A stretch of DNA of 64,000 nt. It comes from Escherichia coli 042 (lineage in GTDB: Bacteria > Pseudomonadota > Gammaproteobacteria > Enterobacterales > Enterobacteriaceae). Positions 2,557-48,581 of the stretch are shown one piece after another. The position numbers and the translations under genes were made by a program. Under the pieces are notes generated by a model. The model saw only the letters and a program-made list of their open reading frames with translations, was not told where the DNA came from and did no database searches. How positions within the stretch are numbered: the stretch's first letter is position 1; every line of letters begins with the position of its first letter. The stretch is from the NCBI RefSeq assembly GCF_000027125.1, contig NC_017626.1, one strand, 5' to 3'.

Positions 2557-2666
2557 GTAAGGTACTGGAAATGTTGACCACTTAATCGGGACTGGTGTTA
2601 TTATTGCCCGCTTATGTCGTCTGCATTGCACAGAGGACCCTTCAATGAACAGAGAAGAAATGCACT

Positions 2667-4025
2667 GTGATGTTGTCAAAATTTAAGCGTAATAAACATC
2701 AACAACACCTTGCCCAACTACCCAAGATTTCTCAATCAGTTGATGATGTCGATTTCTTTTACGCTCCCGCCGACTTCCGGGAGACGCTGCTGGAAAAAAT
2801 AGCCAGCGCGAAGCAGCGCATTTGCATTGTCGCCCTGTATCTCGAACAGGATGACGGTGGCAAAGGCATTCTGAACGCGTTGTATGAGGCTAAAAGGCAG
2901 CGTCCGGAACTGGATGTGCGGGTGCTGGTCGACTGGCATCGTGCACAACGTGGACGCATTGGCGCTGCGGCATCTAACACTAACGCTGACTGGTACTGCC
3001 GCATGGCGCAGGAAAATCCGGGCGTAGATGTTCCGGTTTATGGCGTTCCAATCAATACCCGTGAAGCCCTTGGTGTTCTGCACTTTAAAGGCTTTATCAT
3101 CGACGATAGCGTACTTTATAGCGGTGCCAGCCTGAACGATGTTTACCTGCATCAGCACGATAAATATCGCTACGACCGTTATCATCTTATCCGTAACCGT
3201 AAGATGTCAGACATTATGTTTGAATGGGTTACACAGAATATTATGAATGGCCGCGGCGTTAATCGTCTGGATGATGTTAATCGGCCAAAAAGCCCGGAAA
3301 TCAAGAACGATATTCGTCTGTTCCGCCAGGAGCTGCGTGATGCCGCTTATCATTTCCAGGGCGATGCCGACAACGATCAGCTTTCCGTAACGCCGTTGGT
3401 AGGTCTGGGGAAATCGAGTCTGTTGAACGAGACCATTTTCCATCTTATGCCTTGTGCCGAGCAGAAACTAACCATCTGCACACCATACTTCAACCTGCCA
3501 GCAATCCTTGTGCGCAATATCATCCAGTTACTGCGCGAAGGGAAAAAGGTCGAAATTATTGTTGGTGATAAAACCGCGAATGACTTCTACATTCCGGAAG
3601 ATGAACCTTTCAAGATAATTGGCGCATTGCCTTATCTCTATGAGATCAATCTGCGTCGTTTCCTGAGCCGTTTGCAGTATTACGTCAATACTGACCAGTT
3701 AGTGGTTCGGTTATGGAAAGATGACGACAACACCTATCACCTGAAAGGGATGTGGGTTGATGATAAGTGGATGTTGATCACCGGTAATAACCTGAACCCG
3801 CGCGCCTGGCGTCTGGATCTGGAAAACGCCATTTTGATCCACGATCCGCAACTGGAGCTTGCGCCACAGCGAGAGAAAGAACTGGAGCTGATCCGCGAGC
3901 ATACCACCATCGTTAAGCACTATCGCGATCTGCAAAGTATTGCCGATTATCCGGTGAAGGTTCGTAAACTCATCCGTCGTTTGCGCCGTATCCGCATCGA
4001 CCGATTAATTAGCCGCATCCTGTAA
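2667..4025 (+). CDS. pssA: Phosphatidylserine synthase
   Basis: 452-aa ORF; translation matches recalled PssA; conserved position after patZ. Confidence 0.92.
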   Translation: MMLSKFKRNKHQQHLAQLPKISQSVDDVDFFYAPADFRETLLEKIASAKQRICIVALYLEQDDGGKGILNALYEAKRQRPELDVRVLVDWHRAQRGRIGAAASNTNADWYCRMAQENPGVDVPVYGVPINTREALGVLHFKGFIIDDSVLYSGASLNDVYLHQHDKYRYDRYHLIRNRKMSDIMFEWVTQNIMNGRGVNRLDDVNRPKSPEIKNDIRLFRQELRDAAYHFQGDADNDQLSVTPLVGLGKSSLLNETIFHLMPCAEQKLTICTPYFNLPAILVRNIIQLLREGKKVEIIVGDKTANDFYIPEDEPFKIIGALPYLYEINLRRFLSRLQYYVNTDQLVVRLWKDDDNTYHLKGMWVDDKWMLITGNNLNPRAWRLDLENAILIHDPQLELAPQREKELELIREHTTIVKHYRDLQSIADYPVKVRKLIRRLRRIRIDRLISRIL

Positions 4026-4029
4026 TCAC

Positions 4030-4058
4030 AACCCCGTCCTGTACGGGGTTTGTTTTTT
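4030..4058 (+). terminator. Rho-independent terminator after pssA
   Basis: GC hairpin aaccccgtcctgtacggggtt followed by a T-run. Confidence 0.7.
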
Positions 4059-4070
4059 GGAGGCCACGTT

Positions 4071-4394
4071 TTGCGTATTCTTTTTGTCTGCTCGCTATTG
4101 TTACTTTCTGGATGCAGCCATATGGCTAACGATAGCTGGAGCGGGCAGGATAAAGCTCAACACTTTATCGCCTCGGCGATGCTTTCCGCCGCCGGAAATG
4201 AATATGCACAGCATCAGGGGATGAGTCGCGATCGCAGTGCCACTTTCGGGCTGATGTTCTCTGTTGGGCTGGGCGCGTCAAAAGAACTTTGGGATAGCCG
4301 CCCCGAGGGGAGCGGCTGGAGCTGGAAAGATTTTACCTGGGATGTCGCCGGTGCAACTACCGGCTATACCATCTGGCAACTGGCGCATCACTAA
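4071..4394 (+). CDS. yfiM: Lipoprotein YfiM
   Basis: ORF with lipobox LLLSGC; probable TTG start at 4071 giving 107 aa (the track ORF starts at 4050). Confidence 0.75.
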
Positions 4395-5689
4395 AGACGC
4401 ATCCCTTTTCCTTTACGGTGCAATGTTAGTGAAACCAGAAACGCCACCACGGCCATCAAGGTCACATACCAGAAGAAGGCTGTTTCCATTCCTATTGATT
4501 TCAGTGACAACGCTACGTACTCTGCTGAGCCACCAAATATCGCATTAGCGACGGCATACGACAGACCAACACCTAATGCGCGAACCTGGGCCGGGAACAT
4601 TTCAGCCTTCAGTATTCCACTGATTGAAGTATAAAAACTCACTATCAGCAGGGCGCACATCACCAGACCAAAAGCGGCATAAGGCGAAGAAACGTTCTGC
4701 AATGCTGAGAGAATAGGAACGGTAAAAATGGTTGCCAGAGAACCGAAACATAACATTGAGGTACGACGACCAATCTTATCCGACAGCGCGCCAATAAGTG
4801 GTTGAATAAGCATGAATACAAACAATGCGGCAGTCATAATGCCACTCGCCACGTTGGCATGCATTCCCGCAGTATTTACCAGATACTTCTGCATATAAGT
4901 GGTGAAGGTATAGAAACAAAGGGAGCCCGCAGCGGTAAAACCGAGAACCATGATGAATGCACGGCGATTGCGCCATAATCCTTTCAGAGATCCAGCTTCT
5001 TTTAAAGCGCGTGTTTCTTGTTGTGAAGTTTCATCTAACTGACGACGTAACCACAACGCCACAACAGCTAACACAGCTCCTAACGCGAAAGGAATACGCC
5101 ATCCCCACTCTCTAAGTGCAGCGTCTTCCATGGTGTGTTGTAAAACCACGACAACCAGTAGAGCTAGCAGTTGCCCGCCGATCAACGTCACATACTGAAA
5201 TGATGCGTAAAAACCTTTGCGCCCTTCAACGGCAACTTCACTCATATAGGTGGCGCTGGTGCCATATTCTCCGCCAACGGATAATCCCTGGAATAAACGA
5301 GCAAGAAGCAATAATGCCGGAGCCCAGGTACCGATTGTTTCGTAGCCTGGCAAACAGGCGATAACCAGTGAGCCGAAACACATCATACACACCGATAACA
5401 GCATCGATTTTTTGCGACCATGTTTATCTGCTATGCGGCCAAATAGCCAACCGCCTATCGGGCGCATCAGAAATCCCGCAGCAAAAACACCTGCTGTTTG
5501 CAGTAGTTGAGTCGTCGTGTTCCCGGAAGGGAAGAAGATGTGGGCGAAGTAGAGTGAACAGAACGAGTAGACATAGAAATCGAACCACTCGACCAGATTA
5601 CCTGAAGAGGCCCCCACAATTGCCCAAATGCGGCGACGAGTATCACTACTTGTCAGTTTGCTGTCTGCCGTTACAGTACTTTCAGCCAT
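4391..5689 (-). CDS. kgtP: Alpha-ketoglutarate permease (MFS transporter)
   Basis: 432-aa polytopic membrane protein; translation matches recalled KgtP. Confidence 0.92.
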
Positions 5690-6011
5690 GCCATTATGTC
5701 TCCTGCCGTAATCCGATGCTTTTGTCGGTCGCTGTTGTTTATTTTTTTGGCAAAGAAAATGTTATACATTTGTTGCATATCATTATGCAACCTTAACCAT
5801 GAATTTAGTTAGCAGGAAAATGGTTATTAAGGAGCTTAAGGATAGATTTCTGGTAAGGAGGAAGTATGGAAGTGGGCAATTTGGGGAAGCCGTATTCGCT
5901 GTTGAATCTGGCTTATGTGGGGGGATAATGCGGATATTTACACTCGCCGCAACTCTTCGTAGGTCGGGTAAGACGCGCCAGCGTCGCATCCGGCCTTCTT
6001 CTGCTCCAGCG

Positions 6012-6039
6012 CAAAAAGGCCATCCTGACGGATGGCCTT
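6012..6039 (-). terminator. rRNA operon terminator
   Basis: Hairpin aaggccatcctgacggatggcctt with T-run on the minus strand directly downstream of 5S rRNA. Confidence 0.75.
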
Positions 6040-6051
6040 CTGCTTAATTTG

Positions 6052-6171
6052 ATGCCTGGCAGTTCCCTACTCTCGCATGGGGAGACCCCACACTACCATC
6101 GGCGCTACGGCGTTTCACTTCTGAGTTCGGCATGGGGTCAGGTGGGACCACCGCGCTAAGGCCGCCAGGCA
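6052..6171 (-). rRNA. rrfG: 5S ribosomal RNA
   Basis: 120-nt reverse-complement match to the E. coli 5S sequence (atgcctggcagttccctactctcgcatgggg ... ccgccaggca). Confidence 0.95.
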
Positions 6172-6262
6172 AATTCTGTTTATCAGACCGCTTCTGCGTT
6201 CTGATTTAATCTGTATCAGGCTGAAAATCTTCTCTCATCCGCCAAAACATCTTCGGCGTTGT

Positions 6263-9166
<2,904 letters not shown>

Positions 9167-9359
9167 TCACAACCCGAAGATGTTTCTTTCGATTCATCAT
9201 CGTGTTGCGAAAATTTGAGAGACTCACGAACAACTTTCGTTGTTCAGTGTTTCAATTTTCAGCTTGATCCAGATTTTTAAAGAGCAAATATCTCAAACAT
9301 CACCCGAAGATGAGTTTTGAGATATTAAGGCAGGTGACTTTCACTCACAAACCAGCAAG

Positions 9360-9435
9360 TGGCGTCCCCTAGGGGATTCGAACCCCTGTTACCGCCGTGA
9401 AAGGGCGGTGTCCTGGGCCTCTAGACGAAGGGGAC
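9360..9435 (-). tRNA. gltW: tRNA-Glu in the 16S-23S spacer
   Basis: 76-nt reverse-complement match to tRNA-Glu (tggcgtcccctaggggattcgaacccctgttaccgccgtgaaagggcggtgtcctgggcctctagacgaaggggac). Confidence 0.95.
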
Positions 9436-9520
9436 GTATCAGCCTGCTTCGCAAGACGCCTTGCTTTTCACTTTCTATCAGACAATCTGTGTGAGCACTG
9501 CAAAGCACAGTTCTTTAAGG

Positions 9521-11062
<1,542 letters not shown>

Positions 11063-11243
11063 AAAAGTTTGATGCTCAAAGAATTAAACTTCGTAATGAA
11101 TTACGTGTTCACTCTTGAGACTTGGTATTCATTTTTCGTCTTGCGACGTTAAGAATCCGTATCTTCGAGTGCCCACACAGATTGTCTGATAAATTGTTAA
11201 AGAGCAGTGCCGCTTCGCTTTTTCTCAGCGGCGCGGGGTGTGC

Positions 11244-11271
11244 ATAATACGCTTTCCCGCTACAGAGTCAA
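11244..11271 (-). promoter_or_regulatory. rRNA operon promoter P2
   Basis: On the minus strand TTGACT, 16-bp spacer, TATTAT, upstream of 16S. Confidence 0.7.
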
Positions 11272-11360
11272 GCATTTTTTGCTTTTCTCTGTTGAGATTC
11301 TCAGGAGAACCCCGCTGACCCGGCGGCGTGTTTGCCGTTGTTCCGTGTCAGTGGTGGCGC

Positions 11361-11388
11361 ATTATAGGGAGTTATTCCGGCCTGACAA
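11361..11388 (-). promoter_or_regulatory. rRNA operon promoter P1
   Basis: On the minus strand TTGTCA, 16-bp spacer GGCCGGAATAACTCCC, TATAAT; the canonical rrn P1 core. Confidence 0.8.
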
Positions 11389-11469
11389 GCGAAAAATATA
11401 AAAACTTTATCGTTCGCTCATTTTTCAGGCAAAACATCTTAAATATAGTCTTTTCCGTCTAATTTATAG

Positions 11470-11498
11470 ACAAAAACGAGCCCCGAAGGGCTCGTTTT
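11470..11498 (-). terminator. clpB terminator
   Basis: Hairpin aaacgagccccgaagggctcgttt with T-run on the minus strand just past the clpB stop. Confidence 0.75.
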
Positions 11499-11502
11499 AT
11501 CA

Positions 11503-14076
11503 TTACTGGACGGCGACAATCCGGTCTTCATTAACTTCCAGGCGAATAACTTTACCCGGAACCAATTCACCAGACAGTATTTGCTGTGCCAGCGGGTTTT
11601 CGATCTGCTGCTGGATAGCACGTTTCAGAGGACGTGCACCATAGACCGGATCGTAACCGTTCTCGCTCAGCAGTTTCAGCGCCTCGTCAGAAATGTGGAT
11701 TTCATAACCACGTTCTTCCAGACGTTTGTACAGACGTTTCAACTGAATCTGCGCAATCGACGCAATGTGCTGTTCACCCAGCGGATGGAAGACCACCACT
11801 TCATCGATACGGTTAATGAATTCCGGACGGAAGTTATGGCTTACCACACCGAGCACCAGCTCTTTCATGTGCGCATAATCCAGTTCACCGAAGCGTTCCT
11901 GAATCAAATCGGAACCGAGGTTAGAGGTCATAATGACAACCGTATTACGGAAGTCGACCGTTCTCCCCTGCCCGTCAGTCAGACGCCCATCATCCAGTAC
12001 CTGCAACAGAATGTTGAAGACATCCGGATGCGCTTTTTCCACTTCATCCAGCAGTATGACGGAATACGGACGACGACGCACCGCTTCGGTCAGGTAGCCA
12101 CCTTCTTCATAACCGACATATCCCGGAGGCGCACCAACCAGACGAGACACCGAGTGTTTCTCCATAAACTCGGACATATCGATACGGACCATCGCCTCGT
12201 CGCTATCAAACATAAAGTTCGCCAGCGCCTTACAAAGCTCAGTTTTCCCCACACCCGTTGGGCCGAGGAACAGGAATGAACCAATCGGGCGATTCGGGTC
12301 AGCAAGCCCTGCGCGGCTACGACGAATAGCGTTAGATACCGCATCAACCGCTTCGTTCTGACCAATAACGCGATGGTGCAGCTCTTGCTCCATACGCAGC
12401 AGTTTTTCGCGCTCGCTTTCCATCATGCGAGAAACCGGAATCCCCGTCCAACGCGCCAGCACTTCAGCAATTTCGGCGTCGGTCACTTTATTACGCAACA
12501 GACGCATAGTTTTGCCTTCGAGCTGCGTTGCGGCTTCCAGTTGCTTTTCCAGTTCCGGGATTTTGCCGTATTGCAGTTCAGACATCCGCGCCAGGTCCCC
12601 CACACGGCGAGCCTGTTCAATAGCGATTTTCGCCTGTTCCAGTTCCGCTTTAATGGTCTGCGTACCAGAAAGCGATGCCTTCTCTGCTTTCCACTCTTCT
12701 TCTAACTCAGAGTACTGACGTTCTTTGTCGCTCAGTTCTTCGTTGAGCATATCCAGACGTTTTTTACTGGCTTCATCAGACTCTTTCATTAACGCCTGTT
12801 GTTCCAGTTTGAGCTGGATGATACGGCGATCGAGTCGGTCGAGTTCTTCTGGTTTTGAGTCAATCTGCATACGAATGCTGGATGCTGCTTCATCGATCAG
12901 GTCGATGGCTTTATCCGGCAGCTGACGGTCAGCAATGTAGCGATGTGACAACGTCGCCGCTGCAACAATTGCCGGGTCAGTAATTTGCACATGGTGGTGC
13001 AGCTCGTAACGTTCTTTCAGGCCACGCAGAATCGCAATGGTATCTTCAACAGAAGGCTCGGCAACAAACACTTTCTGGAAACGACGTTCCAGCGCAGCAT
13101 CTTTTTCGATGTACTGGCGATATTCGTCAAGCGTCGTGGCACCTACGCAGTGCAATTCACCACGCGCCAGCGCCGGTTTCAGCATGTTTCCGGCGTCCAT
13201 TGCGCCATCTGCTTTACCCGCGCCGACCATGGTATGTAATTCGTCGATAAACAGGATGACGTTGCCTTCCTGTTTAGCAAGATCGTTAAGTACGCCTTTT
13301 AAACGTTCTTCAAACTCACCGCGATATTTCGCCCCAGCCACCAGCGCGCCCATATCCAGCGCCAGTACGCGGCGGCCTTTCAACCCTTCCGGCACTTCGC
13401 CGTTGATGATACGCTGCGCCAGACCTTCAACGATGGCAGTTTTACCGACGCCTGGTTCACCAATCAGTACCGGGTTATTTTTAGTACGACGTTGCAGCAC
13501 CTGAATGGTACGGCGAATTTCTTCATCACGACCAATCACCGGATCGAGTTTACCCTGTTCGGCTCGTTCGGTAAGGTCGATGGTATATTTTTTCAAAGCC
13601 TGACGTTGGTCTTCAGCACCTTGATCGTTCACGCTTTCACCTCCACGCATTTGTTCAATCGCTTGAGTAATGTTGGCGGTGGTCGCCCCTGCTGCTTTCA
13701 GGATGTCGGCCAGCGTGCCGCGAGACTCAAGTGCCGCCAGAACGAACAGTTCTGACGAGATAAAGTTATCACCACGTTTTTGCGCCAGCTTGTCGCAAAG
13801 ATTAAGAACGCGCACCAGATCCTGTGATGGCTGGACATCACCACCAGTACCTTCAACCTGCGGTAAACGATTTAATGCCTGATTGATATCTGTGCGCAAC
13901 TGGCCAGCATTAATGCCAGCGGATGTTAATAAAGGACTAACCGAACCCCCTTCCTGATTCAGCAGGGCGCTCATTAAATGAAGTGGTTCGATGAATTGGT
14001 TGTCGTGCCCGAGTGCAAGTGATTGGGCATCGGCAAGAGCAAGCTGGAATTTATTAGTAAGACGATCCAGACGCAT
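11503..14076 (-). CDS. clpB: Disaggregase chaperone ClpB
   Basis: Translation [11 protein letters not shown]... with two AAA+ modules (GEPGVGKT and GPTGVGKT Walker A motifs); the track ORF begins 4 codons upstream at 14088. Confidence 0.93.
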
Positions 14077-14205
14077 AACTCCTCCCATAACGGATCAAAG
14101 TTGCTACTGGAGATTAAATGAGGTCATCCCTCAATTATTCAAGGTTATTGACCAGATTAATGTGAAAAGAAAATCACGCGTACCGGATCGTCTTGATTCT
14201 TTAGG

Positions 14206-14937
14206 TTATATCAGCCAAATGAAACTTGCCATACGACCGGTGGTCTTGTCGCGACGATAAGAGAAGAAAGTCTCATTTTCCGTATATGTACAACGGTCAC
14301 CGCCGAAAATTTGTTCGACACCGACGTTCGCCAGACGCTGCCGGGCAAGGAGATAAATATCCGCCAGATACTTATCACCATGCTGAATGAAAGCTGTACT
14401 CGCTTTGGCGTCTACTGCCATAAACGCCTCGCGAACCTCCGCCCCCACTTCAAACGCGCGTGGACCAATTGCCGGCCCTAACCAGGCGAGAATATTTTCC
14501 GGATTATCAGCAAAACAGGAAACCGTCTCTTCCAGCACGCCTGAGCACAGTCCACGCCAGCCAGCATGAGCGGCGGCGACTTCCGTTCCCGCTCGATTGC
14601 AAAACAGCACGGGGAGGCAGTCGGCAGTCATCACTGCGCAAACCGTGCCCGGCGTGTTGCTATAAGAGGCATCTGCTCGTTTTGAGGCATAAGGTTCGCC
14701 AGTAAGCTTAAGCACATCTTTGCCGTGTACCTGCTCAAGCCAGACCGGTTTTGAAGGCAAACTGCCCGCAGCAAAAAGTCGCTTGCGATTCTCCTCAACG
14801 TGATCCGGGTTATCGCCACAATGAGCACCGAGGTTGAGCGAGTCATACGGGGGCAAGCTCACGCCGCCGATACGAGTGGAGCTACAGGCCGCAACACCTT
14901 TTGGCAGCGGCCACTGCGGGACAATCAGCTTACTCAT
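14206..14937 (-). CDS. pgeF: Purine nucleoside phosphorylase/laccase-domain protein YfiH
   Basis: 243-aa ORF in conserved position between clpB and rluD. Confidence 0.88.
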   Translation of the reverse strand: MSKLIVPQWPLPKGVAACSSTRIGGVSLPPYDSLNLGAHCGDNPDHVEENRKRLFAAGSLPSKPVWLEQVHGKDVLKLTGEPYASKRADASYSNTPGTVCAVMTADCLPVLFCNRAGTEVAAAHAGWRGLCSGVLEETVSCFADNPENILAWLGPAIGPRAFEVGAEVREAFMAVDAKASTAFIQHGDKYLADIYLLARQRLANVGVEQIFGGDRCTYTENETFFSYRRDKTTGRMASFIWLI

Positions 14938-15914
14938 AACCAGTCCACTTCATCCTTATGCTCTTCGAAATCGGCGCGCATCACCTCAATCAGCTCCACC
15001 ATATCTTGTGGAATAGGCGCATGCCATTCCATTTCGATGCCGGAGATCGGGTGATAAAGACGCAGCATGGTTGCATGTAGCGCCTGGCGGTCAAACTTAC
15101 GCAGCGTGGAGATAAACGCTTCCGAAGCACCTTTTGGCGGACGCGGACGGCCACCATAAACCGGATCGCCCACCAGCGGATGAGTGATATGGGCCATATG
15201 CACGCGGATCTGGTGCGTACGTCCGGTTTCCAGACGCAACCGCAGACGCGTGTGCACACGGAAGTGTTCCATGATGCGATAGTGAGTGACCGCCGGTTTG
15301 CCCATGGGATGTACCGCCATGTGAGTACGTTTGGTCGGGTGGCGGCTGATTGGTTCATCTACTGTACCGCCAGCGGTCATATGACCAATTGCCACCGCTT
15401 CATACTCACGAGTAATTTCACGCCGTTGCAAAGATTCGACTAAACGCGTCTGAGCCGGAACGGTTTTTGCCACAACCATCAGGCCGGTGGTGTCTTTATC
15501 CAGACGATGGACGATGCCCGCACGCGGTACATCGGCAATGGGCGGATAATAATGAAGCAACGCATTCAGTACCGTGCCATCCGGGTTACCCGCGCCAGGA
15601 TGTACCACCAGGTCGCGTGGTTTATTAATGACGATGATATCTTCATCTTCATAGACGATATCCAGCGGGATATCCTGCGGTTCAAAACGCGCTTCTTCTT
15701 CAATCTCAGCGTTGATGGCAACCTGCTCGCCACCCAATACTTTTTCTTTCGGCTTATCACAAACTTTGCCGTTAACCAGCACGCGCTGGTCGAGGATCCA
15801 TTCTTTTATTCGCGAACGTGAATAATCCGGGAACATTTCGGCCAAAGCCTGATCTAAGCGTTGACCGAGTTGGTTTTCGGACACCGTTGCAGTGAGCTGT
15901 ACTCGTTGTGCCAT
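14934..15914 (-). CDS. rluD: 23S rRNA pseudouridine synthase RluD
   Basis: 326-aa ORF with HRLDKDTTG pseudouridine synthase motif; 4-bp overlap with pgeF. Confidence 0.92.
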   Translation of the reverse strand: MAQRVQLTATVSENQLGQRLDQALAEMFPDYSRSRIKEWILDQRVLVNGKVCDKPKEKVLGGEQVAINAEIEEEARFEPQDIPLDIVYEDEDIIVINKPRDLVVHPGAGNPDGTVLNALLHYYPPIADVPRAGIVHRLDKDTTGLMVVAKTVPAQTRLVESLQRREITREYEAVAIGHMTAGGTVDEPISRHPTKRTHMAVHPMGKPAVTHYRIMEHFRVHTRLRLRLETGRTHQIRVHMAHITHPLVGDPVYGGRPRPPKGASEAFISTLRKFDRQALHATMLRLYHPISGIEMEWHAPIPQDMVELIEVMRADFEEHKDEVDWL

Positions 15915-16048
15915 ATATACTGCTTCTTCGTTTATCGTTGGGGTTTTACGGCTTTGCCGTTTAATATAGTGTGCTATTGTAGCTGGTCTTAACCGGGAGC
16001 AGGAACAGAGAATCTCCCGTATTACATTTTGAGGAAAGTCAAAACGTC

Positions 16049-41516: not shown

Positions 41517-41633
41517 AATTACTTTTCCTTCTAGTTGTCAAAAACATGGAATACAATTAAAAAAGGAAAAGGTCAAACCATAGGCAGAAGGTTGAATACT
41601 TTTTATTCCAGATTAAATAACGCAGCGCGAGAT

Positions 41634-41693
41634 GATTGTTCAAAACAATCACATTGCTGGAACAGGGTTCATCCCTGTTAATGATAGGATTCA
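41634..41693. repeat. Copy A of a repeated element of about 58 bp with two internal inverted repeats
   Basis: gattgttcaaaacaatcacattgctggaacagggttcatccctgttaatgataggatt; nearly identical copy at 56962-57018. Confidence 0.7.
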
Positions 41694-42124
41694 TCTCAAA
41701 AAATGATGTTTTGGTTTTAAAAATATGATATTAGTAAGCTCAAAATAAAAACATGCAACACATACGAATGCAGTCACTAACATTAATTACCTGATACTCT
41801 CCGCGTTACTTATTTTATTGAATCAATGAAAACAATTTTACCTCTTGCTTTTTGACTCTGATTTCTGGTCTTAACCTGTGAATTGTGCAACACATAAAAG
41901 TATTTATAATTTTCACTATTTATTTTAAATTCTGCTTTCCCGCCTTACGGCGAGAGACTAATTTAACTACTTTTGCCCTTACGGGCGTTTTCTAAACACC
42001 AGAATCCAATATTATTATCCTACCTCAACCGTTTATCCGATTCCTACCTTTTTAATTTCACAGTCTGTAAAACTAGAGCTATTATTTAACTATAGAAAAA
42101 CATAAAACATTGTCGTTATTTTTA

Positions 42125-42351: not shown

Positions 42352-43860
42352 ATGGCTATTTTTCATCTGGATTTTAAAATTGTGAAACGTTCTGAAGGCA
42401 GATCTTCCGTTGCGAAAGCTGCCTATCATGCTCGTACACGTATAACAGATGAAAGAACAGGTGATACCTATGATTATAGTCGCCGTACCGATTTATACGG
42501 ACATTTCATATTAGCACCAATTAATGCTCCAGAACATATCGTGAAAGACTCTACAGCATTGTGGAATGAAGTTGAAAGAGTTGAGCGCCAGAGCAATGGT
42601 CAAACATCCCGTTATTTCGATGTTGCCATACCTGCCGAGTTAAACAATGACGACAAGAAAAGACTTGTCCTTGAGTATTGTCAGAAAAATTTCGTTGATA
42701 AAGGCATGATTGCCGATATCGCTTTCCACGATCTTGATAGCGATAATCCTCATGCTCACGTTATGTTGACATTAAAAACCATAGGCCCTGAAGGTTTTGG
42801 TAAAAAAGAAAGAAGCTGGAACGACAGAAAAATGTCTGTTATATGGCGTGAATCATGGGCATCTATGGCTAACAGCTACCTTGCTGCCGCTGGCTCGTCA
42901 GAACGTATTGACCATCGTTCTCTTCAGGCCCAGCATGAAGAGGCATTAGAAAAAGCGGCGGTAGCTTTAGATAATGAAGAAAAAGCGCTATGGCTTGCTA
43001 AAGCCGCTGAAACAAACCGTCCTCCAATGAAGCGTATCCATAGTGCCAAATGGCGTAGTAAAGCAGCACAAGAGCAAAGAGCAGCAGAACAGGCTGTTCG
43101 TGATGCTGCCAAGCAGGAAGCGGTTGAAGTCTACAAGACTTTCAGCGAACTTGATCTTGAAATCGTCGTTGATGTCAGAAGCTTCACCGTGGCTGCTCTT
43201 GCTGAACCAGAAGAGATTGTATTACCAGAAACGCGCTCCGGCTCTTCTTCTCATGAAGCACAAAGTCCTGTATTGGTAGCGCCTATTCCTCATACTCATG
43301 TGCGTGGAGTTAAATCTTACCGCGATAAAGAAAAAGTGAGTAAAGTTGTCATTAATAATATATCAGAACCAAATGTTGCTGATGCTGACATAAACACTCT
43401 TTGGAAAACATCTCCATCTAAAACCAAAAATATGGCATCCAAAAGTACCGCTGAAAGTGTTAAAAGGAAACAGGCTAATCCGCGTCAGGATAATATCTTT
43501 AAACGCTTTACAACGCTTTTGATCGGTTTCTTCAAAGAGAAATTTATATGGGCTAAGAAGAAACCTGATCCTACCGAGATTGAACATGACAGGCATGTAG
43601 CAGAAAATTACGTCTTTGATGAAGTGCTGGGTGTCTATGTATCACGCGCTGACCATGAACAACGAGCCAGATTCAACGGTGATGATAAAGAGTTCTCTGG
43701 TTACAAGCCAACACCTGATGAGATTAAGCGTTTTCCAAGCCGTCTAGCTAATACAGCACAAACTGATAGAGAGCTCGACTACATGCCTTCGCTCGTGGCT
43801 GATAAGAAATCGTTAGCACCTAAATTGAAACCAAATGCTCCCTATAAAAATAGATTATAA
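42352..43860 (+). CDS. MobA/MobL-family (MobQ-type) relaxase
   Basis: N-terminal relaxase signatures: AKAAYHARTRITDERTGDTYDYS (catalytic Tyr region), LWNEVERVERQSNGQTSRYFDVAIPAEL and the histidine triad HDLDSDNPHAHVM; SD gaggt. Confidence 0.85.
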   Translation: MAIFHLDFKIVKRSEGRSSVAKAAYHARTRITDERTGDTYDYSRRTDLYGHFILAPINAPEHIVKDSTALWNEVERVERQSNGQTSRYFDVAIPAELNNDDKKRLVLEYCQKNFVDKGMIADIAFHDLDSDNPHAHVMLTLKTIGPEGFGKKERSWNDRKMSVIWRESWASMANSYLAAAGSSERIDHRSLQAQHEEALEKAAVALDNEEKALWLAKAAETNRPPMKRIHSAKWRSKAAQEQRAAEQAVRDAAKQEAVEVYKTFSELDLEIVVDVRSFTVAALAEPEEIVLPETRSGSSSHEAQSPVLVAPIPHTHVRGVKSYRDKEKVSKVVINNISEPNVADADINTLWKTSPSKTKNMASKSTAESVKRKQANPRQDNIFKRFTTLLIGFFKEKFIWAKKKPDPTEIEHDRHVAENYVFDEVLGVYVSRADHEQRARFNGDDKEFSGYKPTPDEIKRFPSRLANTAQTDRELDYMPSLVADKKSLAPKLKPNAPYKNRL

Positions 43861-44097
43861 ATGATAATATAATTCCCAAAAATATATCTTTCCCCTAAAG
43901 ATTGACCATATCATATACTAAATAACATCATGACTATATTCCTAAGTACTCAAAACCTTGAATTCTATCAACTAAAATGGTATATTATTTTGTTTTTTTG
44001 ATTTTCAATTGCATTGTGATAAGATATTTCATACATTGATTGAGAATATTAAAGAAACGATAATGTATCTTACTTTCATCAATTAGTCGAGGTTATC

Positions 44098-44628
44098 ATG
44101 TCAACTCCTGAGGATGCTTTCAAAAAAAAATTACTAGCTGCTCAACAAGAAAAAGATGAACTTGTTAGGAAAAATCAAATTGATGCAGAGCGTAAAAAAC
44201 AAATCATTGCTGAAAAAATTAGTTTTTATCAAAAACACCAAAATGATTTCATACAACAAGTTATTGAATGGGCCAGTAGTGCAGATTTAAATATCTCATC
44301 ACTTAACATTAGTTATTACGATTATGGTCATTTATTTCAAACAACAGGCATAAGCATTGAATATGATGGTAAAAAAGTTCAGTTTATTCCGCAAGGAGTA
44401 GAACGTGGAACTTTTCTAGGTATCATAAAATTAGATTTTACTAACGCAAATTCATTCATTCAATACTATTTCGGTTTGTCTGCCAATAAAAATGAAGCCG
44501 AACCATATTGGACTTTTGTTCAATATGATACTCAAAACCCTAGTGCTTGGCAGGAAAACTCAAAGCGCATGTCAAAAGAGCTATTCTTTGAAATAATTGA
44601 AAGTATATTACTTCCACCAAAATCATGA
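44098..44628 (+). CDS. Hypothetical protein (176 aa)
   Basis: ORF with SD gaggt upstream; no recognisable motif. Confidence 0.55.
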   Translation: MSTPEDAFKKKLLAAQQEKDELVRKNQIDAERKKQIIAEKISFYQKHQNDFIQQVIEWASSADLNISSLNISYYDYGHLFQTTGISIEYDGKKVQFIPQGVERGTFLGIIKLDFTNANSFIQYYFGLSANKNEAEPYWTFVQYDTQNPSAWQENSKRMSKELFFEIIESILLPPKS

Positions 44629-44947
44629 ATATTGAATATTAGAAAAGCACTCAAGCAGTGCTTTTCTAAATACCATACTCATTTCATTATAAATGAACCT
44701 CGATTTTAATAATTTATACCCTGCCCCCATAATCTTTAATTGCCATATTTATTAATACTGAGATTTAAGCTGTGAGATATATATTTAATATAAAACCACG
44801 ATCGTGTGATAAGACGTTTTCTATATTTACTGGAAATATTAAAATCAAACTCTCCGCTTAAACATAACATTATCATTTATGCCTTGCTATTGGTAAGTAT
44901 TAATTTTTTATCTATACAAGAATCTATTATTCAGATAAAGATTCATC

Positions 44948-45208
44948 TTATTCCGCCCTGTCATAAAAATAAAATGACCAAGCATCACAGAACCATTTAA
45001 TATTTTTATCATCAGATGGATATTCATATCCTTTAAGATTCTCTTTGAGAAAAGATATTTGTGATGGCATCAGCATCCCAACAAGTATCTTTATTAGATC
45101 TTCTGAAGGATATTTATCAAACTCATCTCTGTTAATACCTGTTTTTTCTTCAATGATCACTGAAGCTTTAACTATCTCACATAAAACATCATCTTTTTTA
45201 TTTCTCAT
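44948..45208 (-). CDS. Hypothetical small protein (86 aa)
   Basis: ORF with strong SD aaggaga before the internal ATG (MRNKKDD...); the track ORF is longer. Confidence 0.5.
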   Translation of the reverse strand: MRNKKDDVLCEIVKASVIIEEKTGINRDEFDKYPSEDLIKILVGMLMPSQISFLKENLKGYEYPSDDKNIKWFCDAWSFYFYDRAE

Positions 45209-45379
45209 TATTATCTCCTTTATTGTTTTATATTTAATACCATATAAACAATAAATGTCAAAAATATTTAAAGACAATTTAAGAACAATCAACCCTGAAT
45301 GTATTTGATATGTTGTTCAATACAATAAGCCCTGTATCAAACAGGGCTATATGAATTAAAGGTTACAGATTAAAAAAAC

Positions 45380-46030
45380 TTACCAGCTATCATTATTTCG
45401 CTTTTCAATTGCATCACGATAACGCTGTTGTTCCACAACATCCAGATTTGGATCAAATAACACACTTGATCCTTTCACAGCAATATCGGCATCAATCTCT
45501 GATTGGGGAGCATAGGCCTTATAACCATTAGGCTGTGAAGTGGCTGTGCGGATATATGTCCCATAGTGTTTCCCATTCATAGAACAACCGATGTAAGCCA
45601 ACAGGCAGGCAAACAGGAAAAAGAATGTCCATACTGTATTATAGCCGTTAATCGTATATCCACTTCCATTCACATCTGAAAACACGCCATTAAACCTGAC
45701 CGCATAGACAATCAGGAACGATGAAAGGATAACGGTTCTGCTTTTACCAACAGTTAAATGTTTACGCACAAATTTCACTGTTGGTAGTAGAGTGACCATA
45801 AAAAGAGCGATAGCAACACATACCAGCCATATAGGAAACAGTCCATATTTTTGTGTAATGTTCTGCGATACCGTCACCAAGGACAGCACCAAGAAGGCGT
45901 TGAGCAGAAAAAGTCTGACCGCCATCCATACCTTCACGTTCTTTTGCGTCTTACGGAGAAACAGCATCGGAGTCAGTGATGGTATGTTCATCAGCAGACC
46001 GATGATAAGCACCCAATAGATAGAGTTCAT
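45380..46030 (-). CDS. Hypothetical integral membrane protein (216 aa)
   Basis: Several hydrophobic segments; SD aggaag; last gene of a three-gene minus-strand operon. Confidence 0.6.
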   Translation of the reverse strand: MNSIYWVLIIGLLMNIPSLTPMLFLRKTQKNVKVWMAVRLFLLNAFLVLSLVTVSQNITQKYGLFPIWLVCVAIALFMVTLLPTVKFVRKHLTVGKSRTVILSSFLIVYAVRFNGVFSDVNGSGYTINGYNTVWTFFFLFACLLAYIGCSMNGKHYGTYIRTATSQPNGYKAYAPQSEIDADIAVKGSSVLFDPNLDVVEQQRYRDAIEKRNNDSW

Positions 46031-46046
46031 AGCGTTCTTCCTGTAA

Positions 46047-46601
46047 TTACCGGGCTTGCCAACCGTTATTGATTTTCACCAGAACAATTTTGGCTTCTTC
46101 TGGTTCAGACATCCCTTTCACGCCAGAGAAGGCATTTTTATCAACCCAGCCCGGCACGCCATCCAGTTTCCACGTATAGGTCACTTGCGTCATTTTAACG
46201 CCATTACCCTCACTCGGTTCAGTCCAGCTTTTAACCTCAGCTACGGCACGGTGACCAACACAGGCACCATCTTTACGATCCCAAAACTCAACCTCTTGGC
46301 CTTTGTCTGTTACTTCCAGAACATCTACGCTGCTAAAGCCGTTAGGTTGCTGCGAAACATCAAGCAGTCCCTGATTAGCCAGACCTTTCAAGATTTCATC
46401 ACTGGCACTGTATCCAGCAGAACGATAGCCATGGTTGACCTTAACCGGAAAACCTTTATTGAACGTAAAGTCATTGTCCTGAAGGGAGTAGCAGACCTTA
46501 GATTTTGATATATGCTCGTTTATCGCTTTCTCAAAGTCGCCTTTTTCACCGCAGCCTGATAACAACACGGCAAGTCCTGCAATGACTAAAAATTTACTCA
46601 T
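46047..46601 (-). CDS. Hypothetical lipoprotein (184 aa)
   Basis: Signal peptide with lipobox LLSGCG; SD aaggaa. Confidence 0.65.
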   Translation of the reverse strand: MSKFLVIAGLAVLLSGCGEKGDFEKAINEHISKSKVCYSLQDNDFTFNKGFPVKVNHGYRSAGYSASDEILKGLANQGLLDVSQQPNGFSSVDVLEVTDKGQEVEFWDRKDGACVGHRAVAEVKSWTEPSEGNGVKMTQVTYTWKLDGVPGWVDKNAFSGVKGMSEPEEAKIVLVKINNGWQAR

Positions 46602-46615
46602 GGTTCTTATTCCTT

Positions 46616-47194
46616 TTAATGATTGATAGTGCCGTTTCTCAGAACAACCAGACGAACTGGCATATCGGCATTGTTTACTGTGGCGAAGCCACGAACTTCG
46701 AAGTTGTTGACTGTTCCAGTGACACTGACTTTCTGGCCTTTCTTGTAAGTAAGAACCGCATCATCAATACCAGAGTAGTAATCCAGCCAGACCATCCCGC
46801 CGCAGTAGCTTGTATCGGCTGTTTTAAAGAGCAGATAATAATTAGGGGCTGATTTGGGCATTCCCGTCATCATATCGCTGGCACTTCTGCCCTTCGTAAC
46901 CTCAAGAACAGTGGCATTGGTGATAGCGATCCTTTTGCCAGTCCATTTTTTTTCTGCTGCCATCGCATTTTCTTCATAGTCTTTGCAGACAGCACCAAGG
47001 CCAGTAATGGACGTCGCTGGACCACTATCCTGACCGGAAGCTGAAACCCGCAGCGCTTTATCAACGGTGCTGTTCAATGATGCCAGTGAAGAGTTAATTG
47101 CCCCATTAACGCTATTCACGCCTTCGTTGAGTTGCTGGCAGCCAGAAAGAAACACCAGAGAGATCGCCAGTGGTAAGAAGTTATGTCCTTTCAT
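46616..47194 (-). CDS. Hypothetical lipoprotein (192 aa)
   Basis: Signal peptide with lipobox FLSGCQ; SD gaggaa. Confidence 0.65.
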   Translation of the reverse strand: MKGHNFLPLAISLVFLSGCQQLNEGVNSVNGAINSSLASLNSTVDKALRVSASGQDSGPATSITGLGAVCKDYEENAMAAEKKWTGKRIAITNATVLEVTKGRSASDMMTGMPKSAPNYYLLFKTADTSYCGGMVWLDYYSGIDDAVLTYKKGQKVSVTGTVNNFEVRGFATVNNADMPVRLVVLRNGTINH

Positions 47195-47319
47195 TTATTC
47201 CTCAAGGATTTAGTCAGATTCGTATACCCCAATCCCGGCGCACTGACCTATAGATCAGGAGTTATCGTCTAATCAATTGATAGAATTGAATTATTTTTAG
47301 TGTTCGTCACATCGTTTAA

Positions 47320-47452
47320 ATCGATCGATATAAAACAAATGATAGACTCAGGCTATCATAGATAATATATCGATCGATAATATCAATTAAAAAACCGATC
47401 GATAAATCACTTTCAATCGTTAATGCCTATCAATATAAATTTATCGATCGAT
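47320..47452. repeat. Four copies of palindromic (A)TCGATCGAT(A), each with a GATC site, plus an IR TGATAG-N7-CTATCA
   Basis: Copies at 47320-47330, 47369-47379, 47395-47404 and 47442-47452 in the divergent intergenic region. Confidence 0.75.
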
Positions 47453-47529
47453 TTTACAGATCATTTTGCTTGAGTATGTTGGCACTGGCGGCTATGCTGG
47501 GCTGAGATAAAGCAGTAAAACAGAGAGGG

Positions 47530-47985
47530 ATGAGCATGGAAAACAACAACGAGCGAAGCTCTATGGAAATCTTCGAAAAAGATCAAAAAATCGCTTTTGT
47601 TGACTCGTTCAGCGATGCTGCTTTGTCTTACGAATACGAACAGGCGGGCTTCACCATTAATTTAATGCAACGCTCGGTTCTTCTCTTTAACCATAATATA
47701 AAGAAAAACGTAACTGCCAAGCAGTTGCGTAAAAATAATATAAAGAATAACGTAATGTCTTCGACATTGCGTAAAAATATGAACAGCACATTTATATATT
47801 CATATAACAACATCAGGGAAATCAACTACTCGCTGCCTGATTGCAGATCCGATGATGCCGAGAACTGTATTATGATTGATGATGTATTAAATCCAGTCTG
47901 GACGTTCAGGGTTCCATCTCACGCACATTATATTTGCGAGCAATGGGTGGAAGTATTTAATAACCATATTTTCTTTGACCCATAA
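47530..47985 (+). CDS. Hypothetical protein (151 aa)
   Basis: ORF with SD gaggga; AT-rich. Confidence 0.55.
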   Translation: MSMENNNERSSMEIFEKDQKIAFVDSFSDAALSYEYEQAGFTINLMQRSVLLFNHNIKKNVTAKQLRKNNIKNNVMSSTLRKNMNSTFIYSYNNIREINYSLPDCRSDDAENCIMIDDVLNPVWTFRVPSHAHYICEQWVEVFNNHIFFDP

Positions 47986-48110
47986 ACAAAGTATTAAGCA
48001 AAAGGAAAATAAATATCTGACTAATGATATTAATTAATAGAATTATTTGCTTTTTAGCAAATTAATGTTTAATTATATACACATAGAATAATTGATATCG
48101 AGGTATATTT

Positions 48111-48581
48111 ATGTCTGGGAAAAATCCTTTTTGGAATTATGATTATAATGCGGCGCAACGTAATAGAGAAATTGTAGACTCTTACCAACAGGCAAATGAG
48201 GCAAGGCTGGATTCTCAACAGGCGCAGTTTGAAGCGTCTATGGCTAATGACAGGGTTAGCAGAATACAGATGCAGTTGAATAACACAATCAATAGCCATA
48301 AGAAGGTTGTGGCTGATTATGAGCAACGTCTTGAAGAATATAAACAAAATTTCTTTCGTGTAGCTTTACATAAAAACATTCTCTTCAGAACGGTTCGCAG
48401 ACTTCAGGAGGAATGGCCGGATAAAAATGAATTCATCCTTGATGAAATGCAAAGACAAAGAATTTTGTGTAATCAGCAGGACTATAGAGAAAGATGGTGG
48501 AATGCCATAAAAGATAATAATCTTGCTGACGATTATCTTGAGTTTCCATTTCCTAATAGAGAGATAAAAAACAAACCATAA
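48111..48581 (+). CDS. Hypothetical protein (156 aa), predicted coiled-coil
   Basis: ORF with SD gaggta; Gln/Arg-rich heptad-like sequence. Confidence 0.55.
   Translation: MSGKNPFWNYDYNAAQRNREIVDSYQQANEARLDSQQAQFEASMANDRVSRIQMQLNNTINSHKKVVADYEQRLEEYKQNFFRVALHKNILFRTVRRLQEEWPDKNEFILDEMQRQRILCNQQDYRERWWNAIKDNNLADDYLEFPFPNREIKNKP

Follow-up and report, generated by a model that had tools for sequence, protein, structure and literature searches.

A conserved lipoprotein and its alternative membrane protein partners in ROD21/EARL-like MobQ islands of Enterobacterales

Salmonella Enteritidis, Escherichia coli (uropathogenic strains included) and epidemic Klebsiella ST258 carry mobilizable islands of the ROD21 and ICEKp258.2 type, whose biology is understood only in part. 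The EARL family has been described as mobilizable islands in which a P4-like integrase, TraD, a MobA/MobL (MobQ) relaxase and an H-NS paralogue occur in synteny, and the genes considered here are absent from the conserved modules listed in the comparative study (PMC6035254). In ROD21 of S. Enteritidis, the SEN1981A-SEN1982 region includes a 264 bp 'membrane protein' gene, SEN1981A, lying 10 bp from SEN1982. Similarly, ICEKp258.2 of Klebsiella pneumoniae ST258 carries a 567 bp 'tRNA_anti-like family protein' gene, then a 552 bp gene near MobA, mis-named 'DNA-directed RNA polymerase'; these are the sizes of genes A and B described below.

A number of envelope lipoproteins encoded by conjugative elements, such as TraT of F and TrbK of RP4, are exclusion factors. 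Sfx of IncC plasmids, likewise a lipoprotein exclusion factor, is also found on mobilizable islands (PMC11493245).

The 64-kb stretch of E. coli chromosome analysed here (the window) carries, integrated at ssrA, a MobQ mobilizable island resembling those of the ROD21/ICEKp258.2 type. This shows the full synteny listed above and is alike in type to ROD21, EARL and ICEKp258.2, and it also includes TraW and DotA/TraY genes. Roughly 1.5 kb of variable genes separates its relaxase gene from a set of three genes, A, B and C (Table 1), which are the subject of this report.

Anatomy of the operon and its upstream region

A, B and C constitute one real, co-transcribed operon. The layout proposed in the earlier note was borne out in detail: the coordinates it gave agree exactly with the open reading frame list, with all three genes on the minus strand; the co-directional spacing is tight, at 14 nt between A and B and 16 nt between B and C; and a Shine-Dalgarno sequence precedes each start codon (GAGGA for A, AAGGA for B and AGGAAG for C). 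The products are, as it had described them, two lipoproteins and a polytopic membrane protein, with lipoboxes FLSG-C19 in A and LLSG-C17 in B, carrying Gln and Gly respectively at position +2, and about five hydrophobic segments in C. That these are genuine rather than chance reading frames follows from their low pairwise dN/dS ratios (0.08-0.19 for A, 0.10-0.22 for B and 0.22-0.29 for C) and from the hundreds of conserved homologue clusters found for each. No known RNA family was identified by Rfam over positions 44000-48200.

Table 1. Features of the operon and its surroundings in the window
Feature	Coordinates	Strand	Description
Gene A	46616..47194	minus	ORF, 192 aa; lipoprotein; first in operon when present
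Gene B	46047..46601	minus	ORF, 184 aa; lipoprotein, 'SEN1982 family'; conserved core gene
Gene C	45380..46030	minus	ORF, 216 aa; predicted inner-membrane protein, ~5 TM
Intrinsic-terminator-like hairpin	45328..45348	minus	AGCCCTGTTTGATACAGGGCT plus T-rich tail; 32 nt past C, operon end
MobQ-family relaxase gene	42352..43860	plus	NF041496 MobQ, E=1.6e-77; convergent with operon
Divergent intergenic region	47195..47529		between A and plus-strand gene at 47530

The divergent intergenic region contains four ATCGATCGAT-type palindromes (47320-47329, 47369-47378, 47394-47403 and 47443-47452) and seven GATC sites. Such a ATCGATCGAT cluster lies 5' of the first gene of the operon, whether this is A or B, in 30 of 32 related loci. 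The motif is restricted to that region in eight of nine island loci scanned in their entirety, the ninth (L002) having one extra match with a single mismatch; elsewhere in the window, the only matches are two with one mismatch each. The earlier note took this GATC-palindrome region to contain the promoter: the palindromes were confirmed, a simple scan detected no sigma-70-like minus-strand promoter there, and it is plausible as the promoter region of the operon. One further sequence upstream of A, GGTCAGTGCGCC, which we take to resemble the RSF1010 nick core, was considered as an oriT nick site and rejected; the likeness is attributed to chance because the sequence is kept only in near-identical islands and the window shows no enrichment of nick-core patterns.

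Predicted properties of the proteins

None of A, B, C and the 91-aa protein that can replace C (see below) matched an entry of Pfam, NCBIfam, PADLOC or PHROGs above threshold, and PADLOC-DB 2.0 in particular gave no match to any of the four at E<=0.1. The statement in the earlier note that no motif could be recognised therefore stands with respect to Pfam and NCBIfam, and the profile and structure searches it had suggested found no well-characterised housekeeping family. PDB sequences searched with the family profiles yielded no match to a solved structure.

The B family is uncharacterised in function and has no curated Pfam or NCBIfam model matching at cutoff. In an E. coli locus 99.8% identical to that studied here, RefSeq names the B product a 'SEN1982 family lipoprotein' (WP_000033071.1); as the scan with NCBIfam release 20 brought up no model of that name, the label probably derives from another type of rule. 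B is predicted to be a periplasmic lipoprotein, because the lipobox cysteine is kept in 86 of 87 diverse family members and a pair of cysteines, Cys37 and Cys114, is at least 90% conserved. Its structure was modelled with confidence (pLDDT 91), and the predicted fold joins an N-terminal part resembling a winged helix to a C-terminal sheet of NTF2/cystatin-like type.

Foldseek searches with this model found nothing at E<=0.001 in either the PDB or BFVD, and no close solved relative. Approximately 60-90 of about 165 B residues align, at 3-17% identity, with NTF2/cystatin-like domains such as those of cystatins, latexin, the VirB8-like proteins TraE, TraH and TcpC, and the colicin M immunity protein. 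B differs from these in adding the winged-helix-like subdomain, for which there are partial PadR-like matches of 43-46 residues, and in its conserved disulfide pair. Proteins matched with weak scores included RsgI9 and RsiV, and no clear domain-wide structural match was found between B and a VirB8/NTF2-like component of type IV secretion systems (T4SS).

Below cutoff, B matches the NCBIfam model for a putative type VI secretion system (T6SS) immunity periplasmic lipoprotein (NF045617; E=0.005, 16.9 bits against a cutoff of 43). Together with the variability of the N-terminal part of B, which would fit an arms race, this raises the idea that A and B are orphan immunity proteins directed against a periplasm-acting toxin, such as a T6SS effector or bacteriocin. 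Such a role seems improbable: the match spans only residues 4-43, mainly the signal peptide and the first 25 or so mature residues; a toxin gene is linked in none of the loci examined; and pairing with a membrane protein at a fixed backbone position would be atypical of orphan immunity genes.

Beyond its lipobox, A has a linker of about 45 residues, rich in Ser, Asn and Gly, and then a C-terminal domain; the family alignment shows Cys70 and Cys131 to be invariant. By profile comparison the C-terminal domain resembles, at a sub-threshold level, the OB fold of PF12869 (tRNA_anti-like), with an E value of 0.0019 and 18.2 bits against a 23.5-bit cutoff; all 20 members of the A family match this model below cutoff, the best with E=0.00036. 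The AlphaFold model of A is poor (pLDDT 44.9), and its order of one helix followed by strands is OB-compatible but unreliable. A also has a partial match, over residues 48-107, to PHROG 8545, 'superinfection exclusion Sie-like' (E=0.0018). A relationship to TcdC/Sie-like phage proteins was tried and rejected, as an hhalign comparison with ORF22 of phage A2 was negative (probability 0.5%) and a tblastn search of 50,697 phage records with A as query gave no match; more generally, phage genomes yielded no relatives of A or B.

The hydrophobic segments of C lie, by hydropathy, at about residues 4-25, 34-55, 63-85, 97-115 and 131-150. They are followed by a hydrophilic C-terminal tail of around 65 aa, conserved in the alignment and including the motif DIAVKGSSVLFDPNLDIVEQQRYRDAIEK, which the positive-inside rule would place in the cytoplasm. 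C has no family match in Pfam, NCBIfam or the PDB sequences.

Distribution, partners and mosaic structure of B

The related loci were retrieved with an alignment of the close B family, the deep alignment being too divergent for this purpose. B is present in all 39, from about 20 genera of Enterobacterales, and MobQ is nearby in 31, some 0.8-7 kb downstream of B; the position of the operon next to MobQ and TraD is constant across loci. Among complete E. coli genomes, 246 of 5,426 contain a match to the locus. The slot directly downstream of B is occupied by C in 17 of the 39 loci and in about 18 others by a gene for a 91-aa protein with a zinc ribbon and two transmembrane (TM) segments (Zn91), in either case after a gap of roughly 9-17 nt where the gene calls permit it to be read. 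C and Zn91 are mutually unrelated and are alternative partners of B in the same slot. A is an optional member of the operon, found in 10 of the 39 loci.

B and its downstream membrane partner are thus a conserved backbone module of ROD21/EARL-like MobQ islands, not random cargo. The earlier note was right in assigning the operon to an island and in leaving the family unassigned, but its term 'cargo' is wrong for the pair, given the universal presence of B, the proximity of MobQ and the shared upstream palindrome cluster; only A is optional.

At the level of sequence, B is a mosaic, in which the C-terminal third tracks the type of partner and the N-terminal part varies independently. C-partnered and Zn91-partnered B proteins are told apart without exception by eight residues (130, 134, 138, 171, 173, 178, 182 and 184), all in the C-terminal part (126-184, the N-terminal part being 18-125). 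The B of the window and that of L028, both C-partnered, are 54% identical in the N-terminal part and 88% in the C-terminal part, whereas the corresponding values are 87% and 64% for the window and L020, which differ in partner (C and Zn91), and 46% and 83% for L020 and L033, both Zn91-partnered. The pattern could also arise simply because the 3' end of B is physically joined to the gene beside it.

The B family reaches beyond the islands and comprises 650 clusters at 50% identity. Distant but full-length relatives are present on 620 plasmids, 492 of them conjugative and 53 mobilizable. For instance, they occur on IncX4 (MPF_T) and Klebsiella (MPF_I) plasmids, in maintenance regions outside the transfer operons, such as after topB-hha-hns, and as stand-alone genes with no adjacent membrane partner. 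On a metagenome contig and on a mobilizable Providencia plasmid of 9.6 kb, relatives of 44-47% identity adjoin a zinc-ribbon/2-TM gene, with the gene order reversed relative to the islands; in the plasmid, mobC and a putative relaxase gene follow shortly downstream of the pair. Most metagenome contigs with distant B relatives are too short to reveal their context.

The arrangement upstream of mobC in the Providencia plasmid, the constant place of the operon beside MobQ and TraD, and the TraW and DotA/TraY genes of the window's island would all suit a donor-side accessory that helps island DNA to use a helper mating channel, for example as a VirB8/NTF2-shaped periplasmic adaptor. We consider this distinctly unlikely, as the structural scores are low and generic, the IncX4 and Klebsiella relatives are located outside the transfer operons, and the chromosomal fusions described below have no conjugation link.

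An alternative with slightly better prospects, although still unlikely, is that the lipoproteins are host-interaction or virulence factors raising survival in animal hosts, for instance by resisting host antimicrobial proteins or proteases with a cystatin-like inhibitor fold. SEN1982 is listed among mouse liver and spleen colonisation genes in the transposon screen of Silva et al. 2012, as cited by two ROD21 papers (PMC6968874 and another), which give the homologue as needed for colonisation of both organs; this phenotype is second-hand, and polar effects are not excluded in the citing articles. However, the module is also found in plant pathogens (Pectobacterium, Dickeya and Brenneria), insect associates (Sodalis and Symbiopectobacterium), environmental enterics and small plasmids, and the cystatin match covers about 70-80 of 165 B residues at 3-11% identity, in a fold class that is generic.

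Some B relatives, in other bacteria, are fusions of the form FHA-TM-B or multi-TM-B, and one FHA-fused gene is near a Ser/Thr kinase gene. These suggest that the B domain functions on the periplasmic side of a membrane, in combination with a partner domain in the cytoplasm. C was compared with the multi-TM region of these fusions and rejected as a homologue (hhalign probability <1%).

Such architectures are consistent with B sensing a signal in the periplasm, for example envelope stress or the mating activity of a helper plasmid, and relaying it through C or Zn91 to the cytoplasm to alter island expression, excision or mobilisation. Both partners appear to have cytoplasm-facing parts, the zinc ribbon of one and the conserved tail of the other; the operon adjoins a conserved palindrome-rich control region; extracytoplasmic sensor domains of the NTF2-like type exist, including those of RsgI9 and RsiV; and strains proficient and deficient in excision differ in their transcription of ROD21 genes, in an assay that included SEN1982 (PMC6968874). 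Nevertheless, none of the operon's products has a DNA-binding or enzymatic domain that could serve as output, it is difficult to see how two unrelated partners would deliver a common output, and the stand-alone B genes of IncX4 and Klebsiella plasmids have no adjacent partner at all, leaving this a doubtful reading with a modest chance of being correct.

Proposed role and comparison with known systems

The exclusion, defence or colonisation roles suggested in the earlier note are possible. Our best guess, and a tentative one, is that the module combines periplasmic recognition with an exclusion-type conflict function. We infer the localisation of A, B and C, the interaction of B with its partner and the exclusion function itself in the following terms. 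The operon would be an envelope module of the ROD21/EARL-like MobQ island at ssrA, with B and the membrane protein encoded directly downstream (here C) as its core pair. B would be held near a membrane surface, as its fold begins about three residues past the lipid-modified cysteine; its C-terminal NTF2-like part would pair with the membrane partner, and recognition of a foreign component of the periplasm or envelope would fall to its variable, winged-helix-like N-terminal part. In an island-carrying cell, the module might then block or modulate the entry of DNA delivered by a conjugative mating apparatus or by phage injection machinery. A may act as an optional outer-membrane-anchored accessory, with its long linker bearing an OB-like head.

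The combination in B of a variable recognition part and a partner-linked part is typical of conflict and exclusion determinants. Also counted in favour of exclusion were the evidence that the operon is real and under selection, the backbone status of B, the palindrome clusters (30/32), the sharing of one slot by two partners, the persistence of the pairing in distant relatives, the fusions, the predicted periplasmic location of B, the bias towards mobile elements, the precedent of Sfx and the weak Sie-like match of A. By contrast, PADLOC, the phage genomes and the comparison with characterised exclusion proteins gave nothing in its favour, the islands do not themselves encode a complete T4SS, and the presence of B relatives in maintenance regions of plasmids with differing mating-pair types would be unusual for T4SS-specific exclusion. 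The E. coli +2 rule would assign both lipoproteins to the outer membrane, making direct contact of B with an inner-membrane partner harder, and the FHA fusions near a Ser/Thr kinase point to sensing rather than blocking.

A bolder proposal, which we regard as a long shot, is that the B domain represents a new periplasmic sensor that, with C or Zn91, detects a helper mating apparatus or pilus, or a competitor, so as to time excision and mobilisation or to block entry. If true, the islands would possess a trans-envelope device for 'helper-sensing' whose recognition and transduction parts can be exchanged.

What is new here is that a 'hypothetical lipoprotein' is a backbone gene with one of two membrane partners and a mosaic build, belonging to a family of at least 650 clusters that extends to IncX4 and Klebsiella resistance plasmids. 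Should the module control DNA entry or island behaviour, it would bear on the spread of resistance and virulence islands, and it could explain the attenuation of SEN1982 mutants reported in the citing papers.

Several described systems invite comparison. Exclusion lipoproteins such as TraT, TrbK and Sfx resemble A and B in being small envelope lipoproteins encoded by conjugative or mobilizable DNA; their site of action is the envelope of the recipient, and exclusion determinants with specificity regions are known. No sequence or fold relation to TraT, TrbK, Eex or Sfx was found for the operon proteins, which also differ in lacking an adjacent T4SS operon and in that B, in islands, has a membrane protein neighbour (C or Zn91, in 17 and about 18 of 39 loci). 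TcdC-type PF12869 proteins and their homologues in the int-cI slot of phages share with A a layout in which a membrane anchor leads through a stalk, helical or of low complexity, to an OB-like domain outside the cytoplasm, whereas the anchor of A is a lipid rather than a TM helix and its PF12869 match is below cutoff. A close counterpart is the SEN1981A-SEN1982 region of ROD21, in which the partner of B is apparently of the zinc-ribbon type. By comparison, the island described here is integrated at ssrA rather than at an Asn-tRNA gene, its B is partnered by the five-TM protein C instead of a small membrane protein, and its A is intact where that area of ROD21 has the pseudogene SEN1983.

Anatomy and island setting of the operon

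The operon consists of three genes, here termed A (a lipoprotein), B (the 'SEN1982 family lipoprotein' of RefSeq) and C (a membrane protein), occupying exactly the span stated in the earlier note, with the lengths it gave, all on the minus strand. Its other structural claims were likewise borne out. Both lipoproteins, when their sequences were read directly, possess canonical lipoboxes (MKGHNFLPLAISLVFLSG-C19 in A, MSKFLVIAGLAVLLSG-C17 in B), the genes are separated by only 14 nt (A-B) and 16 nt (B-C), and a purine-rich Shine-Dalgarno sequence precedes each start codon (GAGGA, AAGGA and AGGAAG for A, B and C, respectively). The polytopic nature of C is evident from approximately five hydrophobic segments, followed in the hydropathy profile by a hydrophilic tail of ~65 residues; this tail, along with the loops at residues 26-33 and 86-98 (Lys/Arg-rich), would be cytoplasmic by the positive-inside rule.

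Features of the operon and surrounding island in the window
Feature	Position	Strand	Remarks
tmRNA gene	35384-35746
Integrase ORF	at 35871
DUF3644 protein	37164-38501	+	right after integrase
DNA methyltransferase gene	38836-39882	-	after DUF3644 gene
83-nt repeat, one copy	41622-41704		traD-mobQ intergenic region
MobQ-operon interval	43861-45379		holds two small hypothetical genes
Terminator-like hairpin	45348-45328	-	just 3' of C
C	46030-45380	-	ORF, 216 aa
B	46601-46047	-	ORF, 184 aa
Antisense ORF	46056-46508	+	150 aa, wholly within B
A	47194-46616	-	ORF, 192 aa
Palindromes	47320-47452		spacing 49, 25, 49 bp; between divergent genes
TraW-family protein	50325-51578	-
DotA/TraY-family protein	51949-54609	-
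83-nt repeat, other copy	56950-57032		between genes 55471-56235 (-) and 57693-58391 (+)
530-aa ORF	62281-63873	-	right end of window

Purifying selection acts on all three genes, with dN/dS at 0.08-0.19 (A), 0.10-0.22 (B) and 0.22-0.29 (C), and their G+C contents (0.47, 0.46 and 0.42, respectively) are higher than the island average of 0.377 and lower than the 0.507 of the chromosomal flank. No Rfam families were found in the operon region. The antisense ORF is most likely spurious, as it is the frame of B on which purifying selection acts and which different genera conserve.

The window is part of an E. coli chromosome. The operon locus is 99.8% identical to that of E. coli strain AHB1, in which the island lies 3' of ssrA and encodes, in order, an integrase, a DUF3644 protein, a DNA methyltransferase, TraD, the MobQ relaxase, two hypothetical proteins, C, B, A, three hypothetical proteins, an H-NS paralogue, TraW, DotA/TraY, an HTH regulator and a DUF6387 protein. 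Matches to the locus, all of them chromosomal, were present in 246 of 5,426 complete E. coli genomes, and the full three-gene version in 22 genomes of this set. The DUF3644 protein of the window is a match to PDC-S19, a candidate defence family of PADLOC (E=2.6e-68). TraW and DotA/TraY are components of MPF_I/IncI-type mating pores, present in the window island without the rest of a T4SS; by analogy with SGI1, which remodels the apparatus of helper IncC plasmids (PMC11493245), they may remodel that of a helper plasmid. Two hairpins (GATTGTTCAAAACAATC and GGAACAGGGTTCATCCCTGTT) occur in the directly repeated 83 nt sequence (81% identity), possibly an oriT-like or regulatory element that has been duplicated. 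The 530-aa ORF is missing from the equivalent site in the closest E. coli locus, which has glaH after the island; hence the window strain differs at the distal junction.

Backbone and cargo across related loci

Searching species-representative genomes with a B family profile identified 38 loci in approximately 20 genera of Enterobacterales, to which three plasmid-borne copies were joined before the proteins of the window island were mapped onto all. Among the 39 loci with B, MobQ was encoded by 31, on the opposite strand downstream of B, TraD by 20, C by 17 and A by 10; those without MobQ were mostly short contigs or cut near B. The slot right after B is occupied either by C or, at ~18 loci, by Zn91, a 91 aa protein bearing a CPFC...CTGC zinc ribbon at its N terminus and two transmembrane (TM) helices, and the gap is ~9-17 nt wherever the gene calls permit a reading. 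The stretch between MobQ and the operon is variable, holding genes for an AAA ATPase and a DUF4435 protein in a Yersinia locus, TIR and TPR genes in ICEKp258.2, a 458-aa protein in locus L021, and spanning 9812-11885 in locus L002. This interval has the appearance of a variable hotspot, perhaps for defence genes. The earlier proposal that the operon is island cargo therefore fails for B and its membrane partner, which belong to the backbone, and A is an optional 5' add-on; the true cargo is next door, between MobQ and the operon.

The trio is also found, flanked by IS elements, on Klebsiella IncFIB/HI1B plasmids, with A truncated at its N terminus and B and C at 51% and 69% identity. Klebsiella plasmid CP110748, a conjugative IncFIB/HI1B plasmid, harbours a complete ROD21-like island (1387-20139), which has a DUF4868 protein with a small protein (Kiwa-like), a restriction-modification pair and a Vsr endonuclease beside its integrase. 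More distantly, tblastn detected 620 plasmids with full-length B relatives (25-29% identity), comprising 492 conjugative, 53 mobilizable and 75 non-mobilizable replicons. On IncX4 plasmids the relative comes after topB-hha-hns, in the maintenance region, and a solitary copy lies close to a toxin-antitoxin pair on the MPF_I plasmids of Klebsiella; all plasmid copies examined were lipoproteins.

At 30 of 32 loci, two to four ATCGATCGAT-type palindromes lie 5' of the operon's first gene, whether A or B, at -127 to -303. Eight of nine island loci scanned whole have no such cluster elsewhere, L002 having one extra match with one mismatch; the only other matches in the 64-kb window are two with one mismatch. 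Every palindrome includes a GATC (Dam) site, a CGATCG site and a pair of ATCGAT sites that overlap; the 335-bp intergenic region has seven GATC sites.

The three proteins and the pairing of B with its partner

The observation that no motif was recognisable in the proteins was upheld: B matches no curated model (Pfam, NCBIfam) and no solved structure by sequence, and C, with no family or structure match, has no relatives found outside islands and plasmid-borne island fragments. In A, a lipid anchor and a Ser/Asn/Gly-rich linker (~45 residues) lead to a domain resembling PF12869 (tRNA_anti-like OB). A scores 18.2 bits against this Pfam model, below the 23.5-bit cutoff, and all 20 members of its family likewise fall short of it; the AlphaFold model of A is unreliable. 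This layout is comparable to that of C. difficile TcdC, in which an anchor is followed by a coiled coil and then by a PF12869-like OB domain; phages encode TcdC homologues between int and cI (PMC3575817). A also weakly matches the PHROG 'Sie-like' family (E=0.0018); its profile gave no match when compared directly with that of the phage A2 protein, and no relatives of A were found in phages, such that kinship with TcdC and Sie-like phage proteins is a lead only.

An exhaustive profile search placed 650 clusters (at 50% identity) in the B family at E<=0.001, 125 of them at E<=1e-10. In five of ten longer members scanned, a cytoplasmic FHA domain comes first, then TM segments, with the B domain at the C terminus; one such fusion gene is close to a gene for a Ser/Thr kinase. 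In others, the B domain is preceded by a multi-TM region. Across 87 diverse members, the lipobox Cys is retained in 86, and Cys37, Cys114, Gly116, Trp152, Gly180 and Trp181 are each at least 90% conserved, in keeping with an oxidised periplasmic domain tethered to a membrane surface. The residue after the lipid-modified Cys (+2) is Gly in 42, Ser in 30 and Asp in five of these proteins, and most would be outer-membrane by the E. coli +2 rule; the IncX4 homologue has the classical Asp. An AlphaFold2 model from a deep alignment (pLDDT 91.1, pTM 0.82) predicts a helix right after the anchor, then a helix-hairpin unit (66-97) and a five-stranded antiparallel sheet.

Three observations tie B to a membrane partner. 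Two unrelated membrane proteins, C and Zn91, share one position beside B. Relatives at 44-47% identity adjoin a zinc-ribbon/2-TM gene in reversed order on a metagenome contig and on a 9.6-kb mobilizable Providencia plasmid, where the pair is just upstream of mobC and a putative relaxase gene. Residues 130, 134, 138, 171, 173, 178, 182 and 184 distinguish every B partnered by C from every B partnered by Zn91. B is a mosaic of two parts with discordant histories: over residues 18-125 and 126-184, identity is 54% and 88% between the window and L028 (both with C), 87% and 64% between the window and L020 (with Zn91), and 46% and 83% between L020 and L033 (both with Zn91). Hence the C-terminal third of B moves together with the partner gene, and the N-terminal part occurs as several freely recombining types, 40-55% identical. 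This arrangement fits a partner-binding part joined to a variable recognition part, although the same pattern could arise simply because the 3' end of B is linked to the neighbouring gene.

Candidate functions and known systems

Given that no homology assigns a function to the operon, this was weighed by context. The backbone position in mobilizable islands, the strong bias to conjugative and mobilizable elements, the variable recognition-like part of B and its nature as a periplasmic lipoprotein with an obligatory small membrane partner all point to an envelope conflict determinant. Lipoproteins that act as exclusion factors are well established, and mobilizable islands also encode one of them, Sfx (PMC11493245). 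Exclusion of incoming DNA, conjugative or phage, is tentatively favoured on this basis, but the operon has no similarity to any known exclusion protein and no PADLOC match, and B relatives accompany different mating-pair types, outside transfer operons. The FHA fusions hint instead at sensing. Among the rivals, a sensor-transducer governing island behaviour is not very likely. A virulence factor, the case for which is a transposon screen as cited in two papers, appears unlikely. The operon is still more doubtful as a donor-side transfer accessory, and improbable as an orphan immunity protein.

SEN1982 itself is a gene of ROD21, an excisable island of Salmonella Enteritidis, the gene table of which lists, in order, SEN1979 (TraD domain), SEN1980 (MobA/MobL), SEN1981A (264 bp, 'membrane protein'), SEN1982 (543 bp, lipoprotein), starting 10 bp past SEN1981A, and SEN1983, an 'exported protein' pseudogene (PMC3198454). 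Similarly, the ICEKp258.2 region of Klebsiella ST258 includes, near MobA, a 567 bp 'tRNA_anti-like family protein' gene followed by a 552 bp 'putative DNA-directed RNA polymerase' gene (PMC4943203), the sizes and order of which fit A and B; the polymerase name is a mis-annotation common to many B homologues. The genes were already known as hypothetical lipoproteins annotated in ROD21-like islands. The ROD21 and EARL island papers examined contain no description of B and its partner as backbone, of the two alternative partners, of the conserved upstream palindrome cluster, of the size and fusions of the B family, or of the fold and mosaic organisation of B. The operon most likely falls within the broad class of envelope determinants encoded by mobile elements.
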